Positions 14,968 through 56,030 of a DNA stretch of 64,000 nt are shown one piece after another. The notes below the pieces were generated by a model. That model did no database searches. It was not told the origin of the DNA and was given only the letters and a program-made list of their open reading frames with translations. Within the stretch, counting starts at the first letter, position 1; each line of letters starts with the position of its first letter. The position numbers were made by a program, and so were the translations under genes. The stretch covers positions 22,917-86,916 of the forward strand of contig CANJBO010000003.1 in NCBI GenBank assembly GCA_947472995.1. The letters run 5' to 3'. The DNA is from Chloroflexota bacterium. Lineage in GTDB: Bacteria > Chloroflexota > Dehalococcoidia > UBA2979.

Positions 14968-14979
14968 AAAGGCGATGCG

Positions 14980-16194: not shown

Positions 16195-16237
16195 CGCCGC
16201 GTCCGTGTCACCCTCGACAGGTGACGTGAGATGACAT

Positions 16238-16267
16238 GAAGAAGCCCGCCAATCGGCGGGCTTCTTC
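16238..16267. terminator. bidirectional hairpin terminator between convergent genes
   Basis: GAAGAAGCCCGCC-aatc-GGCGGGCTTCTTC, a perfect 13-bp stem. A second hairpin CGAGGCGTCC-gccgg-GGACGCCTCG lies at 16297..16321. Confidence 0.7.
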
Positions 16268-16334
16268 GTTCTGCGAGGTCGCGTGCGGTGCCCGTGCGAG
16301 GCGTCCGCCGGGGACGCCTCGTCGGTGCTGCGCG

Positions 16335-17390
16335 CTAGCCCCAGGCGCCGCCGTCGCGGAACTCCTTCGGAACGGCGCTGCCGTCCGGGAAGGTGTTGCC
16401 GACGCCCAGCGGCTCCGAGCCGCGGATCAGCTTGAGGCCGTTGTCCGACAGGATCATGCGCTTCTCGGCGTCCGAGAGCAGCGGCATGTTCAGCCAGATG
16501 TCGATGTCGCGCTTGCGGTCGTGGTTGAACTCCGTGAGCGGGAAGTTCGTGCCGAACGCGACGTGCTCCGCGCCGACGCGGCGGACCATCTTGGCGAGGT
16601 CCTCCATCAGCTCGGGGTGCTCGGCGACGCGCGGCGTGACCACCGTGGTGTCCGCGTAGATGTTCTCGAAGTTGTCGCACAGGTCCAGCAGGTCGCCGAA
16701 CGTGTTGTTGTAGCCACCCAGGGCGTGGGCCATGATCACGCTCAGGTTCGGGAAGGTCTCCAGCGTCTTGCGGAACTGGCGCGGACGGCCCCAGACGTCA
16801 CCCGTGCGCGGGTTGATCGAGATGCCGTTCTGCCCCATGCCGAAGCCGCCGCCGGTCTGCGCGAACAGCGGCATGTTGATCGACTGCATGAACTCGTACA
16901 TCGGGAACAGGCGCTTGTCGTCCGCGTGGTGGTGGGTCTGGACGTTGAGCAGCTTCACGCCGCGCGCGCCCTCGTCCCAGCGGTTCTGGACGTAGCTGGC
17001 GAGCTGGTCGCCGGCCATCAGGCGCGGGTCGACCATGATGAACGGGACGATCTCCGGGTGCTGCTGGCCGACCCAGCAACCCCACGCGTTGTTGTGGTCC
17101 ATGCGCGTGAGGAGCTTCTGGTCGAGCTTGATGCCCGAGTTGTTCTCCCACACGGACGTGCCGTACTCGCCGCGCTCGCGGAGGTCGCGCTGCCGCATCT
17201 CGCGGGTCGGGGTGACGATCATCGCCGCGGAGTAGGCGACGCCGGCGTCCTTGTGCCCGGCAAGGAAGTCCTCGGGCAGGCCGGTGTATGGGATCACCGC
17301 GGTGTGCGGGTTCCGCCAGAAGGCGCGCTGGCCCACTTCGGGGGTCCTGAAGAGGTGCGTGTGGATATCGACGACTGGGTAGTCTGGCAT
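16335..17390 (-). CDS. amidohydrolase_2 family metal-dependent hydrolase/decarboxylase/hydratase (ACMSD/LigI/LigJ-like TIM barrel)
   Basis: GGGAGGG SD. Starts MPDYPVVDIHTHLF (the HxH metal motif), has an internal VIMAHALGG, and a C-terminal VAFGTNFPL where the family normally has GSDxP. Confidence 0.8.
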   Translation of the reverse strand: MPDYPVVDIHTHLFRTPEVGQRAFWRNPHTAVIPYTGLPEDFLAGHKDAGVAYSAAMIVTPTREMRQRDLRERGEYGTSVWENNSGIKLDQKLLTRMDHNNAWGCWVGQQHPEIVPFIMVDPRLMAGDQLASYVQNRWDEGARGVKLLNVQTHHHADDKRLFPMYEFMQSINMPLFAQTGGGFGMGQNGISINPRTGDVWGRPRQFRKTLETFPNLSVIMAHALGGYNNTFGDLLDLCDNFENIYADTTVVTPRVAEHPELMEDLAKMVRRVGAEHVAFGTNFPLTEFNHDRKRDIDIWLNMPLLSDAEKRMILSDNGLKLIRGSEPLGVGNTFPDGSAVPKEFRDGGAWG

Positions 17391-17693
17391 GCGGTGTCCC
17401 TCCCGGGGGGTGTTTCAGATGAGCGGCGGTATGGTAGCAGCGAACGTCAACCGAGCCGCAAGCGCCATCCGGGGCGTCCCGCGCGCAGGGTGGACAATCT
17501 CCTTGGGCCAGCGTACAAACGAGTCGGCGCGCGGGCGACGCGCCACGATCCGGGAGCATCGACCGTGCTGCGGCGATCAGGATCCCGGACGACACACCGC
17601 TCTCCAGGCCGCGCGCACGACCGTGTCTGCGTCCTGCGACCCCCGGTGTGACATGACCGAGCACTGCTGCTCATGTTGATGGAGGAGAACCAA

Positions 17694-18911
17694 ATGGCAA
17701 TTCAGCACCCCCTCGAAGGCGTCAAGATCATCGAGATCGCGACGTACGCGCCGGCCAACATCGCGGCCGGCTGGCTCGCGGACCTCGGCGCCGACATCGT
17801 CGTCATCGAGCCGCCCTCGAACCGCGCGCTTGGCCCCGAGTGGGACAAGAGTGACCGCATCCGCCACGTCGAGAACCGCAACAAGCGCGGCATCGGCCTG
17901 AACCTCCGCGAGGCGGCCGGGCAGGAAGTCCTGCACAAGCTCGCGAAGGACGCGGACGTGCTGATCGAGGCGAACCGCCCCGGCGTCGCCAAGCGCCTCG
18001 GCTTCGACTACGAGACGCTCTCGAAGATCAACCCGCGCATCATCGTGCTGTCCTCCACTGGCTACGGCCAGGAGGGCCCGTTCAAGATGCTGCCCGGCCA
18101 CGGCAACGTGTGGGAGGCCACCGGCGGCTGGCTCGCCTCGCAGGGCCTTGGCCTCGGCAACATGGCGGGTGACTACAGCGGCCTGCCGTGGCTGAACCCG
18201 TTCAACCTCGCCGACATCAAGTCCGCGCCGACGATCCTTGCCACCGTGCTCGCCGCGCTCTACGCGCGCGAGAAGACGGGCGAGGGCCAGTACTGCGACA
18301 TCGCGCTGTTCGACAACGTGATCGCGGTGAAGGACCCCTCGAAGCCCAGCAGCACCGGCGACGCGTACTACCACGACCGCCAGCCGCGCCCGAGCTGGAA
18401 CAACTACAAGTGCAGCGACGGCAAGTACATCGCCTTCGCCGCCGGCGAGGAGATCCAGTGGGCCAACCTGTGCAAGCAGCTCGGCCTGGAGCAGTACACC
18501 CACGACCGCGGCAACAACGTCACGCCTGAGAAGAACCGCGAGATCGCGGAGGCGATGGGCAAGGTCCTGGCGACCAAGACCCGTGACGAGTGGTTCGCCC
18601 AGCTGAGCCAGGTCGACACGGAGGTCGCCCCGGTCCTCTCGCTCGACGAGGCCGCGGAGCACCCGCAGGTCAAGCTGCGCAACATGCACGTCGAGGTGAC
18701 CGACGACGAGGGCTACCGCCAGATCCAGTACGGCACCCCGATCAAGCTGAGCAAGACCCCGCCGAAGCTGAAGCACCGCCGCGCGCCGAAGTTCGGCGAG
18801 CACACGGAGTCCGTGCTGCAGGAGCTGGGCTACTCCGGCGACCAGATCAAGAACCTGGTCGACTCCGGCATCGCGATCAGCCGCAAGTACGGCGGCGGCG
18901 GCGGCAAGTAG
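17694..18911 (+). CDS. family III CoA-transferase paralog 3
   Basis: ATG 17694 follows GGAGGAG (the track ORF starts 7 codons earlier). LEGVKIIEIATYAPANIAAGWLADLGADIVVIEPP, and NLADIKSAP...TGEGQYCDIALFD with the Asp present. Confidence 0.9.
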   Translation: MAIQHPLEGVKIIEIATYAPANIAAGWLADLGADIVVIEPPSNRALGPEWDKSDRIRHVENRNKRGIGLNLREAAGQEVLHKLAKDADVLIEANRPGVAKRLGFDYETLSKINPRIIVLSSTGYGQEGPFKMLPGHGNVWEATGGWLASQGLGLGNMAGDYSGLPWLNPFNLADIKSAPTILATVLAALYAREKTGEGQYCDIALFDNVIAVKDPSKPSSTGDAYYHDRQPRPSWNNYKCSDGKYIAFAAGEEIQWANLCKQLGLEQYTHDRGNNVTPEKNREIAEAMGKVLATKTRDEWFAQLSQVDTEVAPVLSLDEAAEHPQVKLRNMHVEVTDDEGYRQIQYGTPIKLSKTPPKLKHRRAPKFGEHTESVLQELGYSGDQIKNLVDSGIAISRKYGGGGGK

Positions 18912-18962
18912 CCGCACGCACCGTGGCGACTCGACGGCGCGTCGCGCATCGATGACCTCGTG

Positions 18963-19000
18963 CTCCCCGGTGCAGCGGACATGTCCGCCGCACCGGGGAG
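18963..19000 (+). terminator. rho-independent-type terminator
   Basis: CTCCCCGGTGC(A)GCGGAC-at-GTCCGC(C)GCACCGGGGAG is a long stem with one bulge, followed by TTCGTCTTTC. Confidence 0.7.
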
Positions 19001-19100
19001 TTCGTCTTTCACCACGGGCACGAGGAGCGCGAGCCCGCGGCGGCATCGACGCCTCGGCGGTGCAGGTTTACCGGCGTGACGTATAGACACCACGTCGTAC

Positions 19101-19148
19101 AGACACAGAGAGGGCCACGTCGGCGCCGACGTGGCCCTCTCTGTGTCT
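19101..19148. terminator. 48-bp perfect palindrome (24-bp arms, no spacer)
   Basis: AGACACAGAGAGGGCCACGTCGGC|GCCGACGTGGCCCTCTCTGTGTCT. I checked the reverse complement base by base. It lies 16 nt downstream of the minus-strand LLM gene stop. Confidence 0.6.
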
Positions 19149-19163
19149 CGCTCGCGCGGAACG

Positions 19164-20057
19164 CTAGCTCATGACCGCCGCGGCGAAGTTCCGCATCTGG
19201 TCCAGGTACCCACCGCGAGCGGCGGGCAGGTTGACGACCATGCGGTTCACGCCCAGTGCCTCGAAGGCGGCGATCTCCTGCTTGGCCATCGTCGGGGTGT
19301 AGCGGTTCCAGGTCATCTCGCCCCGGGCCGACATGGTGCCGCTGGCGTCCTCGCCCTCGGCGACCATCAGCGGCGACCAGCGCACGGAGATGTCCGGGAA
19401 CTTCGCGCCCTTCGCGTCGCAGTACGCGCGGAGCTGGTCAACCAGCGGCGCGAGCTTCTCGGCGGAGCTCCCGCTGGGGTGCCAGCCGCCGCCGTACTCG
19501 ACGATGCGGCGCCACGTCGGGGTGTTGTTGCCGCCGATGAAGAACTTCGGGTACGGCTTCTGCACCGGGTGGATGAGCGGCTGCACGTCGTCGAAGTTCG
19601 TGTACTTCCCGTGGAAGCTCGCGCGCTCGTTCGTCCAGAGCTCGACCATGACCTTCATGTACTCGTCGTTCATCGCGCCGCGCTCGTCGTACGGCAGGCC
19701 GAGGGCGGCCGACTCGTCCGGCTCGTGGCCCGGGCCGGTGCCGATGATCAGGCGGCCGTTCGACAGGTAGTCGATCGTCGCGAGCATCTTGGCGGTCTGG
19801 ACCGGCGGGCGGTAGGGGATCACGAGGATCGTGGTGCCCAGCAGCAGCTTCGTGGTGCAGGCGGCCATGAACGGCAGCAGCGCCAGCGGGTCCTTGAACT
19901 CGTTGCCGTAGTGCGCCGCCATGTTGCCGGGGAAGACCACGTGGTCGTTGACCCAGGCGGAGTCGTATCCGAGCTCCTCCGCCAGCCGCATCGTCTCGCG
20001 GCAGTTGTCCGGCGTGAACCAGGACGCGAAGTTCGGGATGACAAGACCGTATTCCAC
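19164..20057 (-). CDS. luciferase-like monooxygenase (LLM) class flavin/F420-dependent oxidoreductase
   Basis: Trimmed to GTG 20057, which follows AGAGGAGGGG. VEYGLVIPNFASWFTPDNCRETMRLAEELGYDSAWVNDHVVFP and the rest are LLM-typical. The upstream 61 codons of the track ORF lack coding character. Confidence 0.8.
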   Translation of the reverse strand: MEYGLVIPNFASWFTPDNCRETMRLAEELGYDSAWVNDHVVFPGNMAAHYGNEFKDPLALLPFMAACTTKLLLGTTILVIPYRPPVQTAKMLATIDYLSNGRLIIGTGPGHEPDESAALGLPYDERGAMNDEYMKVMVELWTNERASFHGKYTNFDDVQPLIHPVQKPYPKFFIGGNNTPTWRRIVEYGGGWHPSGSSAEKLAPLVDQLRAYCDAKGAKFPDISVRWSPLMVAEGEDASGTMSARGEMTWNRYTPTMAKQEIAAFEALGVNRMVVNLPAARGGYLDQMRNFAAAVMS

Positions 20058-20266
20058 AGGCCCCTCCTCTAATTGTGCGTCGGTGTTGTAGGCCCTTTGC
20101 GTCCCGGCGGTCAAGCAGCGACGAACGTGCGTGATACCTCGATCGCCCGTAGATCCGGGCGTTCGCGTCTCCTGCCGTCCGAGGCTCGTCGCCGTGCTGG
20201 AAGGAGACGCTGTGATAACGTGAATCATCGAGTCGTTCACACGCTGCCGAGGGGCGCACGCGCCGC

Positions 20267-20974
20267 ATGCTGATCGATCTGCACACGCACACCCGCCTCG
20301 GATCGCCTGACTCCTTCCTCGACCCGGACGAACTGGTGGAGCGCTCGAAGGCCGCGGGCCTCGACGCGATCGTCCTCTCCGAGCACGACCACACGTGGTC
20401 CCGCGACGACATCGCCGCGCTCTCCCACCGCCACGACTTCCTCGTCATCCCGGGCCTCGAGGTCAGCACCGACCGCGGCCACATCCTGGTCTACGGCGTC
20501 GAGGTCTACGACCCGTCGATGCGGGAGGCCGAGACGCTCGCCGACGAGGTGGAGCGCCTGAACGCCGCGATGGTCGCCGCGCACCCCTACCGCCTGCACC
20601 AGCCGATGAACTGGCTCGACCCCGACGACTTCGAGCGATCCGTCGAGCGCGTCCTCGTCGACCCCGCCTACCAGCGCGTCCACGCGATCGAGGTGCTCAA
20701 CGGGCACGGCACGCGGAAGCAGAACCGCTTCTCGGAGGCGGTGGCGACCCGCCTCGGCCTCCCGGGGACGGCAGGCACGGACTCGCACCAGGTGTCCGAC
20801 ATCGGCAAGGCCGCCACCTACTTCGAGCGGGACATCCGCGACGAGCGCGACCTCGTTCGGGAGATCCTCGCCGGGCGCTGCTGGGCGGTGGACCGCACCG
20901 CCGGGAAGCTGACAAGCGACGAGCGCCGCCACGGCGTCCCGGCCGATATCGCCGCGGGGTTCTCCGCCTCCTAG
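20267..20974 (+). CDS. PHP-domain metal-dependent phosphoesterase
   Basis: MLIDLHTHTRLGSPDS, VLSEHDH, PGLEVST, AAHPY and GTDSH match the PHP histidine/aspartate motif series. Confidence 0.8.
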   Translation: MLIDLHTHTRLGSPDSFLDPDELVERSKAAGLDAIVLSEHDHTWSRDDIAALSHRHDFLVIPGLEVSTDRGHILVYGVEVYDPSMREAETLADEVERLNAAMVAAHPYRLHQPMNWLDPDDFERSVERVLVDPAYQRVHAIEVLNGHGTRKQNRFSEAVATRLGLPGTAGTDSHQVSDIGKAATYFERDIRDERDLVREILAGRCWAVDRTAGKLTSDERRHGVPADIAAGFSAS

Positions 20975-21154
20975 CGGTTGGAGGCCGCGCCCCTCCGTCC
21001 GGCGCGCGATGCAGTCAGTGCGAGGTGTTGGCGAAAGATCGCGCGCTCCGTATACTCCGGCCCGTCCGGCCCCCGCCCGCGTGACGCGCCCTCGCGCGCC
21101 CCTCTCGCGTCGGACGGCACTGCGATCGAGGCACGGCTGGACGGAGCGCGATCG

Positions 21155-22393
21155 ATGACGCTGGCGAACGAACTGACCTCCTCGCCGCCGCTGCCCGGAC
21201 CGATGGCCGGGCTGCGAGTGCTCGACCTGACGCGGCAGATCGCGGGGCCGTACAGCACGAAGCTGATGGCGGACTACGGCGCCGACGTCATCAAGATCGA
21301 GCAGCGCGAGGTGGGCGATCCCTCGCGCCACCTCCCGCCGTACTTCCACGACGTGGTCGACGCGGAGGGCAGTCTCCACTTCCTCTACCTCAACACCAGC
21401 AAGCGCGGCATCACGCTCGACCTGAAGTCCGAGCGCGGGCGGGAGATCTTCCTCGACCTCGCGCGCACGGCGGACGTCGTCGTGGAGAACTTCCGGCCCG
21501 GCGTGATGGAGGAGATGGGCATCGGGTGGGAGACGCTGCACGCGATCAACCCGCGGCTCGTGCTCACCTCGATCAGCAACTTCGGGCAGACCGGCCCGTA
21601 CCGCGACCTGCGCGCGAGCGAACTCGTCGAGTACGGCATGAGCGGCGTCATGACGATTAGCGGCCGCGAGGACCGCTCGCCGCTGAAGCACGGCCTGTCG
21701 CAGGGCCAGTACGACGCGGGCGCCTACGCCGCGTGGGTCACCGCGATGATGCTGCTGTGGCAGGTGCAGGGCCGCGAGGGCCAGTGGGTCGACATCTCGA
21801 TCATGGACGTGCTCTCGACCACGCTGGTGCTGAACGAGCCGTACTACGCGTGGATGGGCGGCATCCAGGGCCGGCGCACCCCCGCCGGCGACGGTACCGG
21901 CAACGGGCTGGCCGATATCATGCCCTGCGCCGACGGCTACGTGATCGTCCAGCACCGCCAGCAGGAGCCGTGGGCGAACGTCGTCGCGCTGCTCGAGGAG
22001 CCCGAACTCGACAACGATCTCTACACCTCGAACGAAGGCCGGATGCTCGCCAGCGAGACGCTGTACGAGGCGCTGAAGAAGGGGCTCTCGCGCATCACGA
22101 AGCGCGAGCTCTTCGAGAAGGGCGCGAAGCTCGGCGTGCTGATCGGGATCGCGCAGGACCCGGCCGACATCCTCAACTGTCCGCATCTCAACGCGCGCGG
22201 CTACTTCGTCGACGTGGATCACCCGACCACCGGGCCGATGAAGTACCCCGGCGCGCCGGTGCGCATGCCCGGCACCGGCTGGGCCGTCCACCGTCCCGCG
22301 CCGCTGCTGGGCCAGCACACCGACGAGGTCCTGGACGAGCTGGGCATCAGTGCCGCGGAACGCGCCGAGCTGCGCGCGCAGAAGGTGATCTAG
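21155..22393 (+). CDS. family III CoA-transferase paralog 4
   Basis: ATG 21155; a start at M76 is also possible. MAGLRVLDLTRQIAGPYSTKLMADYGADVIKIEQ, and GQYDAGAYAA...REGQWVDISIMDV with the Asp present. Confidence 0.85.
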   Translation: MTLANELTSSPPLPGPMAGLRVLDLTRQIAGPYSTKLMADYGADVIKIEQREVGDPSRHLPPYFHDVVDAEGSLHFLYLNTSKRGITLDLKSERGREIFLDLARTADVVVENFRPGVMEEMGIGWETLHAINPRLVLTSISNFGQTGPYRDLRASELVEYGMSGVMTISGREDRSPLKHGLSQGQYDAGAYAAWVTAMMLLWQVQGREGQWVDISIMDVLSTTLVLNEPYYAWMGGIQGRRTPAGDGTGNGLADIMPCADGYVIVQHRQQEPWANVVALLEEPELDNDLYTSNEGRMLASETLYEALKKGLSRITKRELFEKGAKLGVLIGIAQDPADILNCPHLNARGYFVDVDHPTTGPMKYPGAPVRMPGTGWAVHRPAPLLGQHTDEVLDELGISAAERAELRAQKVI

Positions 22394-22395
22394 CC

Positions 22396-23808
22396 ATGAC
22401 CGCGACACCGATGAACCCGCTGCGCGATGGATCGCACTCGTTTGGCCTGCCGCTCGCCGGCATCCGCGTCCTCGACCTCACGTCGGTGTGGGCGATGCCG
22501 TACGCGTGCGGCGTCCTCACCGACCTCGGCGCCGAGGTGATCAAGATCGAGGGACTGCAGCGCCTCGACACCACGCGCGAGGCGGGCCTGTACCCGGATA
22601 CCAACGGCGGCTTCGAGCCGTGGAACAACCCCGGCACGTACTCCGTGCTGAACCGCGGCAAGCGCTCGATCACGCTGAACATGGCGAGCGAGCGCGGGCG
22701 GGAGCTGTTCCGCGAGCTGGTGAAGACGGCGGACATCGTCGTCGAGAACTACACCGCGCGCGTGATGCGCAACTGGCAGCTGGACTACGACCACCTGAAG
22801 GAGCTGCGCCCCGGCATCATCATGGTGTCGAACACCGGGTACGGCCACGGCGGCCCGTGGGAGAGCTACCCCGTGCAGGGCACCTCGCTCGAGGCGACGA
22901 CCGGCATCCCGAACTTCTCCGGCTACCCCGGCGGGCGACCGTGGACGATCGGCCAGTCGTACCCCGACTTCGTCGCGATGTGGCACGGGCTGTTCGGCGT
23001 GATGACCGCGCTGCGCCGGCGCACGCTGACCGGCGAGGGCCAGTGGATCGACCTCGGCATGTACTCCGCCAACGTCGCGCTGCAGGGCGAGGCGATGCTC
23101 GACTACGTGGCGAACGGCCGCCTCGGCGAGCGCATGGGCAACCGCGACCACATCAACGGCGTGCAGGGCGCGTACCAGACGGCCGGCGACGACCAGTGGA
23201 TGGTGGTCGCCGCCGCGACCGACGGCGAATGGCTCGCGATGCGGGGCGTCGCCGACGCCTCGGGCACCCTCGCATGGACCGGCTCGCCGCCGGCGACGCT
23301 CGCCGAGGCGCGCGCGCGACACGACGAGGTGGACGAGGTGCTGAGCGCGTGGGCCGCGACGCTCTCGCGCGAGGCCGCGGTCGAGGCGATGCGTGCCGCC
23401 GGCCTGCCCGCCGGCCCGTGCAACGACGCGCGCGACCTGCTGCTCGACCCGCACATGAAGGTGCGCGGCGTGTACGAGATGGTGGACCACTTCCCCGGCA
23501 CCGGCACCGGCCGCCGCCCGATCATCGGCCGTGCGTTCCGCCTCAGCGACGAGGAGATCAAGGTCTCCCGCCCCGCCCCCAAGCTCGGCGAGGCGAACGA
23601 CTACGTCTTCAAGGAGATCCTCGGCCTGTCCGACTCCGAGTTCGACGACCTGGTCGCGGAGAAGATCACGGGGACGAAGGAGCCGCTCACCGAGGCGCCC
23701 ACCGGGCTCCCGATCGACGCGCTCCTCGGCGTGCGGCGTATCCGCGTCCACGACCCGGACTACATCGAGAAGCTGGGGATCGTCCAGGAGGGTGCGACCC
23801 CGGACTAG
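22396..23808 (+). CDS. family III CoA-transferase paralog 5 (long form, about 470 aa)
   Basis: ATG 22396 lies 2 nt after the paralog 4 stop. LAGIRVLDLTSVWAMPYACGVLTDLGAEVIKIEG, and SYPDFVAMWHG...TGEGQWIDLGMYS with the Asp present. The 5' 221 codons of track ORF 21733..23808 are off-frame overlap. Confidence 0.9.
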   Translation: MTATPMNPLRDGSHSFGLPLAGIRVLDLTSVWAMPYACGVLTDLGAEVIKIEGLQRLDTTREAGLYPDTNGGFEPWNNPGTYSVLNRGKRSITLNMASERGRELFRELVKTADIVVENYTARVMRNWQLDYDHLKELRPGIIMVSNTGYGHGGPWESYPVQGTSLEATTGIPNFSGYPGGRPWTIGQSYPDFVAMWHGLFGVMTALRRRTLTGEGQWIDLGMYSANVALQGEAMLDYVANGRLGERMGNRDHINGVQGAYQTAGDDQWMVVAAATDGEWLAMRGVADASGTLAWTGSPPATLAEARARHDEVDEVLSAWAATLSREAAVEAMRAAGLPAGPCNDARDLLLDPHMKVRGVYEMVDHFPGTGTGRRPIIGRAFRLSDEEIKVSRPAPKLGEANDYVFKEILGLSDSEFDDLVAEKITGTKEPLTEAPTGLPIDALLGVRRIRVHDPDYIEKLGIVQEGATPD

Positions 23809-24010
23809 CCGAGGCGCGCCTGTTCGCTCGCACGCCCGGGACACTGGCGTCCGGTGCGCGAACCAGCCGTCACCGATTTCGCGACCCGGCCCCTCGTGGG
23901 GGTGACGGGCGTTGTAGACTGCTGCGATTGCGACCGTAGAGCCCCGGGGGTCCGCCGCGGCGGGCAGGGCTCGAGGGTCACCCAGACTGCTGGTATCCGA
24001 GGAGTGAGAC

Positions 24011-25201
24011 ATGTCCCTGCCGTTGGCCGGCATCAAGGTGGTCGATATCTGCACGGTCTACGCGGGCCCGTTCGCCGCGATGATGCTGGCGGACCAGGGC
24101 GCCGAGGTCGTGAAGATCGAGCCGCCCGACGGCGACTCGGCGCGCACGATGACGACGATCCCGGAGACGGACGTCTCGCTCTCGTTCCTCACGTTCAACC
24201 GCAACAAGCGGTCGGTCGTGTTCGACATCACCACGGACCCGGGCAAGGAAGCCGCCTACAAGCTCATCGAGGCGGCGGACGTCCTGATCATCAACACGCG
24301 TGTCGATGGCCGCCGCCGCCGCGGCTTCGACTACGAGACGCTGTCGAAGATCAATCCCCGCCTGATCTACGTCTCGATCACCGGCTACGGCGATGACGGG
24401 CCGGAGGCCAACCTGCCGGGCATCGACATCATCGTGCAGGCCCGCGTCGGCGACATCGGCAGCCGCACCGTGCCCGGCCAGGAGCCGCCACGGCACACGC
24501 CGCTGTTCCACTTCGACATGGGAACCTCGATCGTGACGGCGTGGGCGGTGACGCTCGCGCTTCGCGAGCGCGACAAGACCGGCCGTGGCCAGAAGATCGA
24601 GGCGAGCCTGCTCCAGACGGCGCTCACGCTGCACGCGCTGCAGACCGCGCGCGTCGAGGGCATCGATGTCCGCGGCGCGGTCCGCATGGAAGGGCCGCGC
24701 TCGGCGTACCGCTGTGCCGACGGCCGCTACGTCTCGAACACGACCGCCAACATCCGCCGCGGCTGGAACACGCTCATCGACACGTTCCCGATCCCGGAGC
24801 TGATCATCGATGAGCGCTTCGCAACTGAAGCGGGGCGCCTCGAGCACACGAAGGAGATCGAGGACATCCTGGCGAAGGAGTTCCTCACGAAGCCCGCCGA
24901 CGAGTGGGAGGCGATCTTCAAGGCCGCCGGCCACACCGCCAGCATCATTCGGCAGACCGAGGACGTGCACGAAGACCCGCAGGTCGTCGCGAACAACATG
25001 ATCACGCACTTCCACCAGCCGGGCCTCGGCGACGTGGACGCGGTCGGGCGGCCCTTCCGCTCCTCGGAGACCGCGAACGAGCCGGTGTTCCGCAGCCCCG
25101 CGCCGCACCTCGGCGAGCACACCGACGAGGTCCTGGCCGAGCTCGGCTACAGCGCGGATCAGATCGCGTCGATGCACACGGCGGGCGCGCTCGGCCACTA
25201 G
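24011..25201 (+). CDS. family III CoA-transferase paralog 6
   Basis: GAGGAG SD. LAGIKVVDICTVYAGPFAAMMLADQGAEVVKIEPP, and HFDMGTSIV...TGRGQKIEASLLQ with the Asp present. Confidence 0.9.
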   Translation: MSLPLAGIKVVDICTVYAGPFAAMMLADQGAEVVKIEPPDGDSARTMTTIPETDVSLSFLTFNRNKRSVVFDITTDPGKEAAYKLIEAADVLIINTRVDGRRRRGFDYETLSKINPRLIYVSITGYGDDGPEANLPGIDIIVQARVGDIGSRTVPGQEPPRHTPLFHFDMGTSIVTAWAVTLALRERDKTGRGQKIEASLLQTALTLHALQTARVEGIDVRGAVRMEGPRSAYRCADGRYVSNTTANIRRGWNTLIDTFPIPELIIDERFATEAGRLEHTKEIEDILAKEFLTKPADEWEAIFKAAGHTASIIRQTEDVHEDPQVVANNMITHFHQPGLGDVDAVGRPFRSSETANEPVFRSPAPHLGEHTDEVLAELGYSADQIASMHTAGALGH

Positions 25202-26373: not shown

Positions 26374-26503
26374 TGCGACCGCCTTCCGCAAACAAGTTGT
26401 GCGCCGCGACTATTCGTCAGAACGCAGCGCGCGTCAAGGTAACAACCGTGCGCCCGGGCTTCTTGCGAACGCACGCAGTAATAGACGTATGCGAGGTGCA
26501 CGC

Positions 26504-30886: not shown

Positions 30887-30895
30887 TGTTATATT
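30887..30895 (+). promoter_or_regulatory. candidate extended -10 promoter element TGTTATATT
   Basis: The TG-N-TATATT motif was read directly in an AT-richer patch (ATTGACAATCCCTGTTATATT) about 170 nt upstream of the HMGL-like gene. Confidence 0.3.
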
Positions 30896-34992: not shown

Positions 34993-35316
34993 CTAGCGGC
35001 GGGGACCCTCGAACACGCAGGTGAACGTCACGCCGCCGCTGGTCGCGACGCGGTGGTGGACGTCGCCCGGGATCTCGTAGCGCGCGCCGGGGACCAGGCG
35101 GTGGCCCTCGTCGCCGTCGAGGTAGAGGACGCCTGCGCCGGCGGTGCCCATGTAGACCTCGGGCCACGGGTGGGAGTGGCCCTTCGTCGACTGGCCGGGC
35201 TTGAGGACGGTCTCGGACAGCGTGAACGAGCCGATCTCCATGTCGCGGATGCGGTAGCGGTCGTCATCGACGACGTCGCGCCACACGAGTTCCGTCGAGG
35301 TCGGGGTCGAGGTCAT
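34993..35316 (-). CDS. cupin-domain protein
   Basis: 107 aa. GQSTKGHSHPWPEVYMGTAGAG...GARYEIPGDVHHRV matches the two cupin motifs (G-x5-H-x-H ... P-x-G-x2-H). Its ATG overlaps the upstream stop (ATGA). Confidence 0.75.
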   Translation of the reverse strand: MTSTPTSTELVWRDVVDDDRYRIRDMEIGSFTLSETVLKPGQSTKGHSHPWPEVYMGTAGAGVLYLDGDEGHRLVPGARYEIPGDVHHRVATSGGVTFTCVFEGPRR

Positions 35317-37025
35317 GCGTTCTCCTGCTGCGGGGACATGGTGGTGGGGATGTCAGCGGTCTGGAGCACCAGCGCGGCCGGAGCCGAGCGGCGGTTCTTC
35401 TCCGCGACCTGGTAGACCAGGCCGCGGCCGGAGGCGAGACGCCACTGCGCGTGGAGCGCGGGGAGGCTCGCCCAGAAGAAGGTGATGATCATCATCGCGG
35501 GCCACATCGCGTACTGGACGACGAGGTGACGCGCGGTCACGTGCGCCGGCCGCGGCGGGCGGGTGCGGCCCTCGAAGGCGATCATCGCGAACAGCGGGAT
35601 GATGCAGAGCGCGACGAACAGGCCGACGAGGTTCAGCCACATCCACGGCTCGATCACGCCGGCCTTCGTGCCGATGTTCAGCCACCCGGAGAGCGTCATC
35701 GCGTTCTCGGGGTGCCAGCCGGGGCCGGGCACCTGGAACGCCTTGTGCGTCCACCAGTGCGGCATCGGCGCACCCAGCGCGGCCAGCTTCGTCGGGACGA
35801 GGATGCCGAGGGTGACGAGGTACCACTGCGAGAACCACAGCGTGTGCACCTTCGTCACGGTCGCGGCGATCAGGATGCCGCGCGCGCGGCTGAGCTTCGT
35901 GTCCTTCGCGAAGGCGGCGCGCCACGCGTAGGGGATGTCGCTGGCGCCCCAGGCGTGGCGCTTCGACTGCTCGTAGTGGGCGAAGAGGGTCTTGCGGTAG
36001 TTCTCCGTGAGCACGCAGTCGTTGCCCAGCGGGAGGTACAGCGGCTCCACGTGGACGCGGTCACCCAGCGAGTAGCAGCACTTCATGTAGATGTGCCAGT
36101 CCTCCGGGATGACCTCCTCGTCCCAGTAGTCCACCGTGTGCAGCATCTCCCACGAGAGCGAGTAGCACGATGTCGGGAACTTCAGGCTGAGCGGCAGGAC
36201 GAGGTTCGCCGTGCGGTTGATGCCGGAGAGGCCGTCCGGGATGCGCAGCGGCGCGGGGATGTCCCAGATGTTGTTGCTGTTGAAGATCGTGGGCTGCCAG
36301 AACGTCCGGTAGCGGTCGCGCGCCGTCAGGAACATGTAGTTCAGCGCGGCGAAGTGGCGCTGGTGGAAGAGCGCGTCCGCGTCGCACGAGGTGATCGTGT
36401 AGCGGCGGATGTCGTCGCGGCCGTCCTCGATCAAGCGGGAGAACGCCTCGCGGGCGGCCCATGCCTCGTTCGAGCCCTTGCCGGGGGTGTCGCCCGGGAG
36501 GCCGTGCGGGTGGAACGTGGCGAACATGCCGCCCAGCTTCGCCTGGTAACGCTCGACCAGGCGCGCGGCCTTCTCGTTCGCGCCCGGCTCGCGGGCTTCC
36601 ATCGCCAGCACCACGATCACCTGCTGGGCGTTCGCCTGCTCGGCGATCGCCTCCACGGTGCCGGAGAGGCTGTCCTCGTCTTCCTTGTAGTTCGGGATGA
36701 TCACGATGTGGCGGGGCCAGTCCCACGCCTCCACCTCGGCGCCGGGGTGCTTCGAGCGCCATGCCTGGAAGTGCGCGGGCCAGTCCGTGCGCTCCCACTG
36801 GCGGATGCGGCGCAGGCCGATCCAGACGGCGACGGCGACGGAGTACGAGCGCAGCACCCAGTAGGTGAAGAAGATCGTGAGGGCAACGGCGAGCCAGCTG
36901 GCCGTCGTGCGCGTCAGCGGCATCCAGAAGACGACGCTCGCGAGGAACAGCGAGATGACCAGCGGGACGGTGTTGCCGATGCGGACGCCCCAGTCCGTCG
37001 AGGCCTCGACGGAGGGCGTGGGCAC
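35313..37025 (-). CDS. polytopic membrane glycosyltransferase, GT2-like (processive type)
   Basis: GTG 37025. N-terminal and C-terminal transmembrane bundles flank a cytoplasmic domain with IIPNYKEDED, TSCDAD (DxD) and EQSKRHAWG (Q-x-x-R-W-like). Confidence 0.65.
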   Translation of the reverse strand: MPTPSVEASTDWGVRIGNTVPLVISLFLASVVFWMPLTRTTASWLAVALTIFFTYWVLRSYSVAVAVWIGLRRIRQWERTDWPAHFQAWRSKHPGAEVEAWDWPRHIVIIPNYKEDEDSLSGTVEAIAEQANAQQVIVVLAMEAREPGANEKAARLVERYQAKLGGMFATFHPHGLPGDTPGKGSNEAWAAREAFSRLIEDGRDDIRRYTITSCDADALFHQRHFAALNYMFLTARDRYRTFWQPTIFNSNNIWDIPAPLRIPDGLSGINRTANLVLPLSLKFPTSCYSLSWEMLHTVDYWDEEVIPEDWHIYMKCCYSLGDRVHVEPLYLPLGNDCVLTENYRKTLFAHYEQSKRHAWGASDIPYAWRAAFAKDTKLSRARGILIAATVTKVHTLWFSQWYLVTLGILVPTKLAALGAPMPHWWTHKAFQVPGPGWHPENAMTLSGWLNIGTKAGVIEPWMWLNLVGLFVALCIIPLFAMIAFEGRTRPPRPAHVTARHLVVQYAMWPAMMIITFFWASLPALHAQWRLASGRGLVYQVAEKNRRSAPAALVLQTADIPTTMSPQQENA

Positions 37026-37348
37026 CTGCTCCGGGATCCCGCTCGTCGAGGGGGGTACGGAGGTGGCACGGGGGCGACGGACGGTGGGCGGGGCTGTAGT
37101 GATCAGGAAAGCCCTCTTTGGGTTTTCCTCCGATGCCGACGGGGTTAGCTGACGGGCTACGGGTGGAGGTCCCGCATCCCCGCACGCGCCTCACGGCGTT
37201 CGCGGGAGATTACGCCCCGGTAACTGGTTCCCCCGCTCCTCGTTCGTTAGAGGACTAGGCTAGCCTGCGTATTGCCGACTGATCGTACGGGATTTCCGTG
37301 GCCCACGCCACGACCGTGTCCAGCCACAGCCCATCACGCAGGGAATAT

Positions 37349-40844: not shown

Positions 40845-41816
40845 CTACTCGACGCTGCCGAGCGCGGCGCGCTCCTCGACGGTGAGTACGGGGAAGGCGT
40901 GCAACTGGCGCAGCCGGTCGATGCGGTCGGCGATCGGTGGGTGCGTGGAGAGCAGGCCGGCGGCACGCGCCTCGAACTTCTTGATCGGGTTCACGATGTA
41001 GAGGTGCTGCGTCGCGCGGTTCGCGACCTCCAGCACCTCGCGGTCCGTCGCGATCGAGGCCAGCGCGCGCTCGAGGCCTCGAGGGTTGCGCGTCAGCTCG
41101 ACGGCCGTCGCGTCGGCGAGGTACTCGCGCTGGCGGCTCACGGACAGCTGCACGAGCCGCGCCGCGATCGGCGCGAGGATCGCGAGGACGACCGCGACGA
41201 CCATCATGATCGCCTGCGCGCCGCCGCCGCCGTTGTCGTTCCTCGACCGGCGTCCGCCGCCGAACCAGAGGCTGCGCATGAACATGTCGGACAGCAGCGC
41301 GATGCCGCCGACCAGCACGCCCACCAGCAGCATGAAGCGGATGTCGAGGTTGCGGACGTGCCCCAGCTCGTGCGCGAGGACGCCCTGCAGCTCCTCGCGA
41401 TCGAGCTTCTCGAGCAGGCCGGTCGTGACGGCGACGGAGGCGTGCGCCGGGTCGCGGCCCGTCGCGAAGGCATTGGGCGCGGTGTCGTCGATCAGGTAGA
41501 CCTTCGGCATCGGCACGCCGGCGGCGATCGCCATCTCCTGCACCACGTTCAGCAGCTGCGCGTGCTCGACGGGGTCGGCGGCACGGGCCTGCGAGGCGGC
41601 GAGGACGATCGCGTCCCCGCCGTAGTACGAGCCGAGCGACATCACGATGCCGATGACCAGCGCGACGGCGGTGAACCCCGCGCCGCCGGCCACGTACCCG
41701 GTGTACGCCATGCCGATGGAGAAGCCGAGCGCCGCGAGGAGGAGCGCGGCGGCCACCATCAGCAGCAGCGAGGAGCGCCGGTTGGACGCCTGCTGGTCGT
41801 AGAACGTGGATCGCAT
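40845..41816 (-). CDS. htpX: M48-family zinc metalloprotease HtpX-like
   Basis: N-terminal TM helices, NAFATGRDP, then the HELGH zinc motif (GVLAHELGHVRNLD). Confidence 0.85.
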   Translation of the reverse strand: MRSTFYDQQASNRRSSLLLMVAAALLLAALGFSIGMAYTGYVAGGAGFTAVALVIGIVMSLGSYYGGDAIVLAASQARAADPVEHAQLLNVVQEMAIAAGVPMPKVYLIDDTAPNAFATGRDPAHASVAVTTGLLEKLDREELQGVLAHELGHVRNLDIRFMLLVGVLVGGIALLSDMFMRSLWFGGGRRSRNDNGGGGAQAIMMVVAVVLAILAPIAARLVQLSVSRQREYLADATAVELTRNPRGLERALASIATDREVLEVANRATQHLYIVNPIKKFEARAAGLLSTHPPIADRIDRLRQLHAFPVLTVEERAALGSVE

Positions 41817-41843
41817 GTCGGCCAGCGGAGGGGTGCGCTCCGG

Positions 41844-42404
41844 CTAGCGGAGACGCACCTCGGGGACCGCCTCGGCGCCGGGCTCGGCGTCGAAGAAGTC
41901 GCGCCGCTCGAAGCCGAACATGCCGGCGATGATCGAGCTGGGCACGGTCGCGATCGACGTGTTGTAGGACAGCACGGTCGCGTTGTAGTGCTGGCGCGAG
42001 AACGAGATCTGGTTCTCGGTGGTCGCCAGCTCCTCCTGCAGGCTCGCCACGTTCTCCGAGGCGCGCAGCTGCGGGTAGTTCTCCATCACGGCGAACAGCG
42101 AGCGCAGCGTGCCGGTCAGCTGGTTCTCGGCGTCGGCGGCTTCGGCGGGGCCCTGCGCGCCGGCGGCGACGGCGTTCGCGCGCGCCTCGGTCACCTTCGT
42201 CAGGACGTCCTGCTCGAAGTCCATGTAGCCCTTGACGGCGTTCACGAGGTTGGGGATGAGGTCGTGCCGGCGCTTCAGCTGGACGTCGATCTGGGACCAC
42301 GCCTCGTCCACGCGCAGGCGCGCGCGGACCAGGCCGTTGTACATCCCGATGACGACCACCACGAGCAGCACGACCACGCCCACCACGATGAGAAGAGGAA
42401 GCAT
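41844..42404 (-). CDS. lemA: LemA family membrane protein
   Basis: An N-terminal TM helix followed by YNGLVRARLRVDEAWSQIDVQLKRRHDLIPNLV...ENQISFSRQHYN, the LemA consensus. Confidence 0.85.
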   Translation of the reverse strand: MLPLLIVVGVVVLLVVVVIGMYNGLVRARLRVDEAWSQIDVQLKRRHDLIPNLVNAVKGYMDFEQDVLTKVTEARANAVAAGAQGPAEAADAENQLTGTLRSLFAVMENYPQLRASENVASLQEELATTENQISFSRQHYNATVLSYNTSIATVPSSIIAGMFGFERRDFFDAEPGAEAVPEVRLR

Positions 42405-52567: not shown

Positions 52568-53409
52568 TCGGTCTCCTCGGCGATCACGCCCAGCGTGGCG
52601 AGCCACGGGGCGGCGGCGTCGCGTTCGCGCAGGTAGAAGAAGTGGTCGGTCGGGCCGGCGCCGCCGCCGAGGCCGGGCGCGTGGCGGATCGCCTCCGTGA
52701 GGTACGCCTTCGCGATCCCCACGGCGTCCTCGAGGTCGCGGCCGTGCGCGAGCTGCGTCGCGAGCGCCGCGGAGAACGTGCAGCCCGTGCCGTGCGTGTC
52801 GGTCGTCTCGATGAACTCGCCCTCGTACACGCGCGAGCCGCTCGCGTAGAGCAGCAGGTCGGTGCCGGGGCGCTCCTCGAGGTGGCCGCCCTTCAGCACG
52901 ACGGCGCGCGGGCCCTGCTCGAGGATGCGCGTGGCCGCGATGCGCGCGTCCTCCAGCGTCGCGATCGTCATCTCCGCGAGGATCTGCGCCTCGTGGATGT
53001 TCGGGGTCACGACCTCGGCCAGTGGCAGCAGGTCGACGCGGAGCGCCTCGATCGCCTGCTGCTGGAGCAGCGGGAAGCCGGACTTCGACACCATCACGGG
53101 GTCCAGCACGTAGTGGGGCGGGTGATAACGGCGGATCGCCGCCGCGACGACCTCGACGCGCTCGCGGTCGGCGAGCATGCCGCTCTTCACGGCATCCGGG
53201 GTGAAGTCGCTGAAGACGGCGGCGAACTGCGCCTCGATCAGGTCGGCCGGGAGGCTGTACGCGGCGGTCACGGCGCGGGTGTTCTGCGCGGTGACCGAGG
53301 TGAGCACGGTGAGGCCGTACGCGCCGTTGGCGGCGATCGACTTGAGGTCGGCCTGGATGCCCGCCCCCGCCCCGCTGTCGGAGCCGGCGATCGTCAACAC
53401 CGTGCGCAC
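52564..53409 (-). CDS. thiD: hydroxymethylpyrimidine/phosphomethylpyrimidine kinase
   Basis: GTG 53409 follows AGGAGG. VLTIAGSDSGAGAGIQADLK, TSVTAQNT, VLDPVMVSKSG and THGTGCTFSAA. Confidence 0.92.
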   Translation of the reverse strand: MRTVLTIAGSDSGAGAGIQADLKSIAANGAYGLTVLTSVTAQNTRAVTAAYSLPADLIEAQFAAVFSDFTPDAVKSGMLADRERVEVVAAAIRRYHPPHYVLDPVMVSKSGFPLLQQQAIEALRVDLLPLAEVVTPNIHEAQILAEMTIATLEDARIAATRILEQGPRAVVLKGGHLEERPGTDLLLYASGSRVYEGEFIETTDTHGTGCTFSAALATQLAHGRDLEDAVGIAKAYLTEAIRHAPGLGGGAGPTDHFFYLRERDAAAPWLATLGVIAEETE

Positions 53410-53479
53410 GTCTGCCTCCTGCTCGCAGGCACGGCGACGAGGCGACGATCAGACATTCGAGGCGCACGGGACGAGGTCC

Positions 53480-53575
53480 GCGAGCGCACATCCCTCCGCC
53501 GGCATTACCCGGATCAGGTTCGCGGGTCTGATCTCAGGCCGGAGACGGACTCGTCCCGACCACCCCGTGTGCTGT
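53480..53575 (-). promoter_or_regulatory. TPP (THI-box) riboswitch
   Basis: The minus-strand transcript reads CACGGGGUGGUCGGGACGAGUCCGUCUCCGGCCUGAGAUCAGACCCGCGAACCUGAUCCGGGUAAUGCCGGCGGAGGGAUG. It contains the GGGGUG, CUGAGA and ACCUGAUCCGGGUAAUGCCGGCG...AGGGA cores of the TPP aptamer, about 70 nt upstream of thiD. Confidence 0.9.
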
Positions 53576-53840
53576 GCTGGCTCGAATCTACCACGAACGT
53601 CGCGCATGCAGCTCGCGCTCAGGAGGTTCCGAGTATCAGCCAGGGTCCCCCAACTTCCGCAGGGGCGTGGGGGCGGAGTCCCCACGCCTTCCTTCAGAAC
53701 CCCTCCCGCGCCCGGGAGGGGCAGGGGTGGGCCGCGGGGCGGCAACTACGAGGAGGCAGCGATGAGGACAACGGGTTGTAAGCGATCGACGAGATGACGA
53801 GCGCTGCGTGCATCGAGCGTTCACGCAGGGTGCCACGTGC

Positions 53841-53867
53841 TTAGCACTCGCTCGCACCGAGTGCTAA
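53841..53867 (+). promoter_or_regulatory. perfect CIRCE (HrcA operator) element TTAGCACTC-N9-GAGTGCTAA
   Basis: Read directly: TTAGCACTC (53841..53849), gctcgcacc (9 nt), GAGTGCTAA (53859..53867). This is an 18/18 match to the CIRCE consensus, 50 nt upstream of the GTG 53917 start. Confidence 0.85.
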
Positions 53868-53916
53868 CCTCGTTCGGTTGGCATCGAGCGCATTCGCGGC
53901 AGCGAAGGAGCAGCAC

Positions 53917-54852
53917 GTGCACCCCGAGGTCCGTCTCATCGGTGACATCCCGCCGCTGCACCGGCCGCTGCTGATCGCCGCGTTCGACGGGCGCAACGGC
54001 GCTGCCGCCGTGGCCGCCCTCGCGTACCTTGCCGAGCAGTGGGACGCCCAGCCGGTCGCCGAGATCGAGATCGACCGCCACTTTGACTTCACCGTGGAGC
54101 GCCCCTGCGTCCGCACCGAGGACGGCGTGCGCGTGATCGACTGGCCCGACGCCCACTTCGCCGTTGCGCGCCCGCCGGGGGCCGACCGCGACGTCGTGCT
54201 GTTCGTCGGCGACGAGCCGCACCTGCGCTGGAGCGCTTACTCCGCGGCGTTCGCGTCCGTGGCAGAGGCGCTCGGCATCGAGCAGACCATGCTCCTGAAC
54301 GCGTACCAGGGCGGCGCCGCGCACACGCGGCCCATCCCGATCCACCTCGTAGGCGCCGACGAGGAGATGACCGAGCGCTTCGCGCTGCCCTCTCGCGCGC
54401 CGCGCTACCAGGGGCCGGCGTCGTTCGCGATGGCGCTGGCCGTGCAGGAGCGCGCGCAGGGGCGCGGCGGCTTCTCGCTCACCGTGACCGCGCCGTTCTA
54501 CGTCGTCGGCGACGCCAACCCGTACGGGATGCGCGCGCTCGTCCGCGCCCTCGACGGGGCGCTGGGGACCAGCACCGACCTCGAGCCCATCGACGGGCTG
54601 ATCGCCGAGGCGGAGATCGGGCTCATCGACGCGTTCGAGGAGCAGCCCGACCTGCGCAGCACCGTGCGCCAGCTCGAGGAGCAGTACGACCTGGCGATCC
54701 CGCTGGAGGAGACGTCCCGCCCCGCCGACGCCGTCGACCCCCACGCCGTCGTGGATGAGGTCGAGGCGTTCCTCCGCAGCCTGCGCGTCGCTCCGGACTC
54801 CGACCCCGCCGAGGGCGGTGCCCCCGAGTCAGGCGACGGACACCTCGTCTAG
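53917..54852 (+). CDS. PAC2 (proteasome assembly chaperone 2-like) family protein
   Basis: GTG 53917 follows GAAGGAG; the track start at TTG 53878 has no SD. PLLIAAFDGRNGAAAVAALAYL, FDFTVERPCV, VLFVGDEPHLRWS and LLNAYQGGAAHTRPIP fit the actinobacterial PAC2 pattern. The C-terminal tail is acidic. Confidence 0.7.
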   Translation: MHPEVRLIGDIPPLHRPLLIAAFDGRNGAAAVAALAYLAEQWDAQPVAEIEIDRHFDFTVERPCVRTEDGVRVIDWPDAHFAVARPPGADRDVVLFVGDEPHLRWSAYSAAFASVAEALGIEQTMLLNAYQGGAAHTRPIPIHLVGADEEMTERFALPSRAPRYQGPASFAMALAVQERAQGRGGFSLTVTAPFYVVGDANPYGMRALVRALDGALGTSTDLEPIDGLIAEAEIGLIDAFEEQPDLRSTVRQLEEQYDLAIPLEETSRPADAVDPHAVVDEVEAFLRSLRVAPDSDPAEGGAPESGDGHLV

Positions 54853-54974
54853 CCGCGAACCCTCGCCCGATCGAGCGAGGAGATTCGCGCGGTTCGCCTG
54901 ACCTGCAATGGCAAATCCGTTGCGTTTCGTGGTCAACTATCCCGAACTCGTTACGCCCCGGTAAGGCCTCCCTG

Positions 54975-56030
54975 ATGCGCCTCCGACGCTTCGTCGTCCG
55001 CCCGCTGCTCGCCGTCGCGCTCCTCGGGATGCTGCTCGTCACCGCGAACTGCGGCACCCAGCGCCTCTCGATCGAGGATGCCGCGCTGGTCGCCTCGACG
55101 CCCGTCGCGGTGAGCACGCCGGCGCCCGCGCCGGTCACCTCCGCGGTCGATGCGTCGGTCAACATCCTCCCCACGCCGGTCGCCGTGAACCCGCCGCGAC
55201 TCGTCGCGTGGGGGCCCGCGCCCACCGTGGCCGCCGGCGCGGTCGCGGCACCGGCGATCGCCGGCGAGGCCGCACTGCTGATGGACGAGACGAGCGGGCG
55301 CATCCTCTACGCGAAGAGCCCGAACGACCGCCTGTCGCCCGCCAGCCTCACGAAGATCATGACCGCCCTGCTCGCCGTCGAGCGCGGCCACCTCGACGAG
55401 CTCGTCGACGTGCGGGTGGACAGCCGCACGATGCGCGGCAGCACGGTGATGGGGCTGGTGCCGGGCGAGCAGCTGACGCTGGAGGACCTGCTGTACGGGA
55501 TGATGCTCCCGTCCGGCAACGACGCCGCGCTCGCGATCGGCATGCACGTCTCGGGCACCGCCGAGGAGTTCGTCGTGCTGATGAACAAGCGCGCCGGCGA
55601 GCTGGGCCTCGTCAACACGCGCTTCGCCAACCCGCACGGCCTCGACGGCGCGGGCGGCAACTACTCGTCGGCGTACGACCTCGCGGTGCTGACGCGCGAG
55701 GCGATGCGGCACGAGCAGTTCCGCACGATCGCGAACACGACGTACCGCGTCGTGAAGGGGAGCATCGCGACGTATAGCCTCGGCACGCTCAACCCGCTGT
55801 ACGGCCGCATCGCCGGCGTGGACGGCGTGAAGACCGGCTACACGCGCAACGCGCGGCAGACGCTGGTCGGCTCCGTCACGCGCGACGGTCACCGCGTGAT
55901 CGTCGTCGTCTTGCGGTCCTCCGATCGCGCCTCGGACGGCGTCTCGCTGCTGAACTGGGCGTTCGCGGCCCACGAATGGCCCGCGCCCACCACCGTCGCC
56001 GCCGAGGGCGCCCCGGCGCCCGGCTCCTAG
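54975..56030 (+). CDS. D-alanyl-D-alanine carboxypeptidase (peptidase S11), second paralog
   Basis: A signal/lipobox (LLGMLLVTANC) is followed by a Pro/Ala/Val linker. Contains SPASLTKIMTA (SxxK), LPSGNDAA (SxN) and VDGVKTGYT (KTG). Confidence 0.85.
   Translation: MRLRRFVVRPLLAVALLGMLLVTANCGTQRLSIEDAALVASTPVAVSTPAPAPVTSAVDASVNILPTPVAVNPPRLVAWGPAPTVAAGAVAAPAIAGEAALLMDETSGRILYAKSPNDRLSPASLTKIMTALLAVERGHLDELVDVRVDSRTMRGSTVMGLVPGEQLTLEDLLYGMMLPSGNDAALAIGMHVSGTAEEFVVLMNKRAGELGLVNTRFANPHGLDGAGGNYSSAYDLAVLTREAMRHEQFRTIANTTYRVVKGSIATYSLGTLNPLYGRIAGVDGVKTGYTRNARQTLVGSVTRDGHRVIVVVLRSSDRASDGVSLLNWAFAAHEWPAPTTVAAEGAPAPGS

Follow-up and report, generated by a model that had tools for sequence, protein, structure and literature searches.

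A conserved CIRCE element upstream of one of two PAC2-family paralogues in Dehalococcoidia

In a 64-kb stretch of DNA from an uncultured freshwater member of the Dehalococcoidia (hereafter the window, meaning the whole of the stretch that was analysed), a CIRCE element precedes a gene encoding a PAC2-family protein, and the same pairing recurs across related lineages; the element is genuine and conserved, a cis-regulatory site of a type already known that has a new target. The element is found on only one of the two PAC2 paralogues carried per genome, which corrects the first-pass annotation of this DNA. From comparison of these sequences, it is likely that the element is an HrcA operator which contains the promoter and represses a monocistronic unit encoding one of two PAC2/ParJ-like paralogues.

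The CIRCE element and the downstream gene

The element, TTAGCACTCGCTCGCACCGAGTGCTAA, occupies positions 53841–53867 (no strand assigned) and has no mismatches to the CIRCE consensus TTAGCACTC-N9-GAGTGCTAA, agreeing at 18 of 18 specified positions; the inverted repeat itself consists, in the window, of 10-bp arms separated by 7 nt. It had previously been described as a perfect 27-bp match, and the match is indeed exact, but the positions specified by the consensus number 18, not 27. A consensus scan of the 64 kb returned this as the sole site with three or fewer mismatches, matches occurred in 0 of 100 dinucleotide-preserving shuffles of the window, and the expectation for an exact CIRCE from base composition (70% G+C) is 8e-8 per window, which bears out the earlier view that a chance origin is very unlikely. 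Exact, unique in the window and conserved across lineages (see below), it is the presumed HrcA binding site.

The gene for a PAC2-family (ParJ/Rv2125-like) protein of 311 aa (53917–54852, + strand) starts at GTG 53917, 49 nt past the 3′ end of the element, and a Shine-Dalgarno sequence, GAAGGAG (53904–53910, +), lies 6 nt before the GTG, agreeing with the first description of a gene about 50 nt downstream with this ribosome-binding site. Orthologues carry GAGGAGG or GGAGGA at the equivalent place. A longer open-reading frame from TTG 53878 was considered as the PAC2 gene and rejected, since the orthologues in the clade of the window protein (clade A, below) all start MHPDV at the GTG 53917 codon.

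The Pfam PAC2 profile (PF09754) matches the product at 116.3 bits against a cut-off of 25.8 (E 2.2e-33, profile positions 9–202 of 215), and the family assignment made without database searches therefore holds under an HMM search; NCBIfam has no model for the 311-aa protein. In a sequence search of the PDB the best matches were Rv2125 (5UN0, E 1.3e-34) and 3MNF of S. avermitilis (6.2e-31), with further matches to Cgl1923, Rv2714 and SCO1997. An AlphaFold (AF2) model built from a 39-sequence alignment reached a pLDDT of 89.6 and a pTM of 0.80, and Foldseek placed the actinobacterial structures Rv2125, 3MNF, Rv2714, Cgl1923 and SCO1997 at the top, with archaeal PbaB and PbaA and then human PAC2 within 20S assembly intermediates at lower ranks. 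The predicted structure confirms the PAC2 fold of the 311-aa product. In the model, the C-terminal 45 residues comprise a helix, on which the conserved VE.FLR motif lies, and then a disordered Gly/Asp/Glu tail. The very end of the protein varies within clade A (HLV in the window, and RAL, RIE, RLV or RRA), and an HbYX-type docking motif is absent from the window protein and its orthologues. A Pfam survey of the 64-kb window, with tblastn for hrcA, found no proteasome, parA, chaperone or hrcA genes. Of the marks that would point to a proteasome assembly chaperone or activator, 20S genes in the window and an HbYX motif, we therefore see neither. Among Actinobacteria, PAC2-fold proteins are a conserved signature; they are also widespread in Chloroflexota and occur in organisms without proteasomes.

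To our knowledge, ParJ is the only bacterial PAC2-fold member with any assigned activity. ParJ (SCO1662) interacts with ParA and dissociates ParA filaments; 3MNF is its S. avermitilis orthologue and SCO1997 a ParJ paralogue (PMC4255298). The statement in the first-pass annotation that the bacterial function of this family is essentially unknown was thus too strong, as the family is not wholly uncharacterised.

Distribution of the operator among PAC2 lineages

PAC2 loci were collected from one genome per GTDB species (80 loci), from metagenomes (70) and through exact-protein look-ups (9), giving 159 loci and more than 1 Mb, each of which was scanned over its full length for CIRCE with up to four mismatches. 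The genome scan was seeded with a 15-sequence PAC2 alignment, the 39-sequence alignment being too diverse as a seed. A neighbour-joining tree of the proteins contains three Chloroflexota clades (A, B and C) and a mostly actinobacterial outgroup; identity to the window protein is 63–73% in clade A, 35–45% in the small clade B and 36–44% in the large, common clade C. The nearest homologues belong to MAGs labelled Chloroflexi or Dehalococcoidia, and the window sequence itself was found only in freshwater, lake and drinking-water DNA metagenomes; it corresponds to positions 361099–425098 of a 463,788-bp metagenome contig in ENA.

Across the 159 loci, sites with four or fewer mismatches occurred only before clade-A and clade-B PAC2 genes. 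In clade A, eight of nine lineages (the window, L001/L090, L002, L003, L004, L082, L085-87/L094 and L092) carry the element with 0–1 mismatch and with its 3′ end 38–56 nt before the PAC2 start codon, and in clade B it is present in all four (L038, L061, L083 and L095), ca. 550 nt upstream of PAC2. Full-locus scans at the same threshold detected no CIRCE in ~60 clade-C loci, nor in the remaining, mostly actinobacterial, PAC2 loci. The ninth clade-A lineage (L084, L091 and L093, identical upstream of the gene) has lost the left arm and kept GGGTGCTAACCT, a natural deletion of half the operator. Individual MAGs carry a CIRCE-bearing copy together with a CIRCE-less clade-C copy (A and C in CANKAU, CANIRU, CAMDAY, JBFWQJ and JGI 3300014205; B and C in JAWKPL and JAIBBD), which implies that the element is specific to one paralogue.

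Conservation within clade A is sharply confined to the element. In ungapped, element-anchored comparisons, the arms score pairwise identities of 0.94 (left) and 1.00 (right), the spacer 0.50 and the three bases that follow the element 0.90, whereas the 30-nt flanks stay at 0.26–0.31, the level of random sequence. The sole recurrent change in the arms is C/G at position 7, which is G in the left arm of four lineages (five loci). That both half-sites are so strictly kept implies a cognate protein that binds them. Linkage of CIRCE and PAC2 in relatives, the footprint and the paralogue specificity all support the earlier proposal that this PAC2 protein belongs to the HrcA heat-shock regulon.

Promoter elements within the operator

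In all 12 copies the element is followed directly by nnT, and the right arm therefore reads TGCTAAnnT. Of the eight clade-A lineages with an intact element, seven read TGCTAAACT across the right arm and following bases and the window reads TGCTAACCT; there the sequence (53862–53870, +) has the form of an extended −10 (TGnTAnnnT) overlapping the right arm; its promoter function is our reading of the pattern. The left arm supplies a −35-like TTAGCA (53841–53846, +), 18 nt from the −10 hexamer, likewise a tentative assignment. A strict generic sigma-70 consensus scan of 53400–55100 returned no promoter, and the clade-A alignment contains no other conserved block between the thi promoter (below) and the PAC2 Shine-Dalgarno sequence.

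The TGnTAnnnT motif occurs only six times in the 128 kb formed by both strands of the window, at 17431–17439 (−), 20213–20221 (+), 26436–26444 (−), 30887–30895 (+), 53585–53593 (−) and 53862–53870 (+), and each time it lies 38–49 nt upstream of a start codon on the same strand. By our own estimate some 2–3% of positions are so near a start codon, which puts six out of six far outside chance expectation. In seven of the eight clade-A loci scanned the motif also lies 6–7 nt before the TPP riboswitch, and in the eighth (L084) TGCTAAATT is readable at the equivalent place on the minus strand. The motif appears suitable as a promoter signature in this GC-rich member of the Dehalococcoidia.

These observations suggest that the CIRCE operator contains the PAC2 promoter. 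Because the right arm would form the extended −10, a bound repressor would block the promoter, and the lineage without the left arm but with TGCTAACCT fits a promoter kept without its operator.

Gene neighbourhood and limits of the transcription unit

On its other side the element faces a divergent operon (thiD-thiE-thiO-thiS-thiG-thiE, then NMT1/ABC transporter genes), headed by a TPP riboswitch identified by its riboswitch match (53474–53577, −), as expected from the first description of the opposite side of the spacer as feeding a thi operon with a riboswitch of its own. The putative thi promoter, recognised by the TGnTAnnnT motif as an extended −10 TGGTAGATT (53585–53593, −), bounds the PAC2 control region on its upstream side. 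CIRCE lies 247 nt from this −10 in the window, compared with 33–34 nt in most clade-A relatives and up to 73 nt in L082. Relative to those loci, the interval from the thi promoter to CIRCE (53594–53840) is longer by ~216 nt; the additional sequence is unique, hairpin-rich and GC-rich, and was found as a repeat neither elsewhere in the window nor in the fetched loci.

The order of genes in clade A is the thi operon, the divergent CIRCE-PAC2 unit, Peptidase_S11, Amidase_3 and a polysaccharide deacetylase, usually followed by an OmpR-type two-component pair, PhoU and sulfite reductase, with a GerE-type regulator pair intervening in two lineages. A gap of ~85–130 nt separates PAC2 from the three wall-enzyme genes, whereas in most contigs those three lie end to end or almost so. 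RNA folding places a GC-rich hairpin after the PAC2 stop codon (54855–54889, +), possibly a terminator without a T run; a consensus terminator scan of 53400–55100 found nothing. Beyond it, an alignment of eight clade-A intergenic regions revealed a conserved non-coding block, TGCAA..TTTCGTGkTCAmC (54909–54937, +; TGCAA..TTTCGTGTTCAC), present in all eight and ~45 nt before the S11 start. A separate transcription unit probably begins at this block, which would then bound the CIRCE unit on its downstream side. The block may be where a regulator binds, or a promoter for an alternative sigma factor; in the window, genes for an OmpR-type response regulator and a kinase follow just downstream. We read PAC2 as probably monocistronic, with read-through possible. 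No chaperone or protease gene was found in the clade-A neighbourhood.

Clade-B copies have other neighbours, which indicates that CIRCE travels with PAC2 and not with thi. In the three clade-B loci whose open-reading frames were read, CIRCE lies 67–94 nt before a gene of 151–155 aa that precedes PAC2 (L038 5521–7504, L061 553–2556 and L083 1688–3100; L095 is the fourth such operon). Downstream of PAC2, an FKBP-type peptidyl-prolyl isomerase gene overlaps or abuts the PAC2 stop codon in L038 and L061 (Pfam E about 1e-37), and a carbonic anhydrase gene follows in L083, so that FKBP occurs in two of the three loci with a downstream gene read. For the 151-aa partner, neither a significant Pfam match nor a homologue in the 64-kb window was found. 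The presence of a folding catalyst in this putative operon modestly strengthens the proposed link of PAC2 to protein quality control.

Among clade-C copies, two neighbourhoods were inspected and gave no consistent functional clue; both are of an envelope-glycan type, with UbiA, FAD_binding_4 and adh_short in L088 (6954–10174) and adh_short, GtrA and a glycosyltransferase in L089 (5111–8065).

Elsewhere in the window, a c-di-AMP (ydaO-type) riboswitch (37119–37271, −; 59 bits) heads a 570-aa open-reading frame (35313–37025, −) that matches no Pfam family at E 1e-5 or better, and would be an uncharacterised c-di-AMP-regulated gene. The region 13756–25201 holds a cluster of five family-III CoA-transferase paralogues, an amidohydrolase and a luciferase-like monooxygenase, with acyl-CoA dehydrogenases further along. 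A LemA and Peptidase_M48 (HtpX-like) gene pair lies at 40845–42404 (−), with no CIRCE nearby.

Discussion

HrcA-CIRCE class I control is established for groE and dnaK of B. subtilis, and in Chlamydia and Helicobacter the operators overlap the core promoter. The element described here shares with these systems the identical consensus inverted repeat with 9-nt spacing, a promoter-proximal position just upstream of the regulated gene and conservation among orthologues. It differs in its target, a PAC2/ParJ-fold gene and neither a chaperonin nor an Hsp70 operon, and in that the operator appears to supply both the −35-like element and the extended −10. The first-pass annotation had given groES/groEL and dnaK operons as the genes under CIRCE control, which holds for the classical systems, but HrcA regulons with lineage-specific members beyond groE and dnaK are already on record. 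In Mollicutes CIRCE reportedly precedes lon and clpB, and in Chlamydiota a lineage-specific effector linked to the stress response is said to belong to the HrcA regulon. Recruitment of a non-canonical gene under CIRCE in one lineage is common to these cases and ours, whilst the protein family is a different one here. A literature search found no paper linking HrcA or CIRCE with PAC2.

No hrcA was found in the window or in the first 89 fetched loci by tblastn with approximate B. subtilis and M. tuberculosis HrcA queries and a Pfam survey; a lone weak tblastn match (L054) was discarded because it falls inside an unrelated 1128-aa open-reading frame. The Pfam survey likewise found no groES/EL or dnaK in the 64 kb or the fetched loci. 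We take SAR202 to belong to the Dehalococcoidia. A 2025 study reported hrcA in non-streamlined SAR202 bacteria (PMC11994032). On conservation, position and paralogue specificity together, the element is likely to be a functional HrcA operator for this PAC2 gene, and its conservation upstream makes the PAC2 family a likely new member of the heat-shock regulon.

In the established model, unfolded proteins occupy GroEL and HrcA then loses its activity. Applied to this locus, an extended −10, TGCTAACCT, would be formed from the right arm and the three bases after it and a −35-like TTAGCA from the left arm, an HrcA dimer bound to CIRCE would exclude RNA polymerase, and once GroEL was occupied by unfolded proteins HrcA would become inactive and the PAC2 paralogue would be transcribed, beginning around 53877 and with a leader ~40 nt long. 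Constitutive expression would fall to the clade-C paralogue, which lacks CIRCE, in the genomes that carry both. The motif, its conservation and fixed position, the paralogue specificity, the PAC2 fold and the promoter-motif counts are shown by the analysis; that HrcA binds, that heat induces the gene, where transcription starts and what the protein does are what we infer from these patterns.

Two further accounts of the palindrome itself seem far less credible. That it serves the divergent thi operon, or both promoters, would suit its position 33–34 nt beyond the thi extended −10 in most clade-A relatives (73 nt in L082), but the distance is 247 nt in the window, the clade-B copies are not beside thi, and the conserved feature is the distance to the PAC2 start codon; we give this account almost no credence. 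A chance or relic palindrome without a regulatory role, or the site of a regulator other than HrcA, would agree with the lack of hrcA in the window and the first 89 loci, and with the one lineage that lost half of the site and kept its PAC2 gene. It is highly improbable in view of the expectation of 8e-8 and of arms that are 94–100% identical between randomised flanks, upstream of PAC2 proteins only 63–73% identical, and we know of no protein other than HrcA that recognises the CIRCE consensus. The extent of the regulated unit bears on a third account, in which CIRCE controls a longer operon of PAC2, a D-Ala-D-Ala carboxypeptidase (S11), Amidase_3 and the polysaccharide deacetylase, and the true target is heat-responsive cell-wall remodelling, PAC2 being just the leading gene. 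The order of these genes is kept on one strand in all clade-A contigs long enough, and no T-run terminator follows PAC2; the gap of ~85–130 nt after PAC2, set against wall genes that abut or nearly abut, the strong hairpin after its stop codon, the conserved block ~45 nt before the S11 start, which resembles a control site of its own, and the clade-B CIRCE-PAC2 operons without wall genes argue the other way, and we regard a long operon as improbable.

The remaining question is what an HrcA-regulated PAC2 protein would do. Like ParJ, Rv2125 and 3MNF, its best matches in sequence and structure (TM-scores 0.79–0.84, target-normalised), the window protein has C-terminal LE..YD and E.FL motifs; unlike them it has only ~30% identity to that group, the sampled actinobacterial homologues lack CIRCE, and the ParJ partner ParA is not implicated here. 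The main alternative to a chaperone-like role keeps HrcA regulation but has the protein regulate a ParA/MinD-type ATPase in the manner of ParJ, in which case heat shock would be coupled to the segregation of chromosomes or to cell division, and not to protein folding in general. In its favour are the best PDB matches (Rv2125 and the ParJ orthologue 3MNF), the dissociation of ParA filaments by ParJ (PMC4255298) and the position of clade-A genes beside septum-type wall enzymes; against it, identity to 3MNF is only ~30% (E 6e-31), no parA lies nearby in the window and the clade-B operon carries an FKBP folding catalyst. We consider this role rather unlikely. With archaeal PbaA/PbaB and eukaryotic PAC2 (PSMG2) the protein shares the fold (Foldseek E 1e-12 to 6e-6) and the Pfam family, but at 13–18% identity, with no HbYX-type C-terminus and no proteasome genes in the window. 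One point against the chaperone-like role, our preferred explanation, is that ParJ, the nearest relative to have been characterised, targets ParA rather than unfolded proteins.

We hold with moderate confidence that this PAC2 paralogue has a stress-induced chaperone-like role, and the product would be a stress-inducible, ATP-independent assembly or disassembly chaperone. A wider and more tentative proposal, to which we give somewhat less than even credence, is that bacterial PAC2/ParJ-fold proteins are ATP-independent, proteasome-free chaperones, of which a duplicated copy became a class I heat-shock protein under HrcA in some Dehalococcoidia, sometimes co-transcribed with FKBP and the 151-aa partner. 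If the chaperone reading is true, a new protein family would join the bacterial heat-shock chaperone set. The conserved, paralogue-specific HrcA operator would be a direct regulatory clue that one branch of the PAC2 family acts in proteotoxic stress, and CIRCE-PAC2 would illustrate cleanly how a regulon can grow by gene duplication, with an operator that doubles as a promoter.
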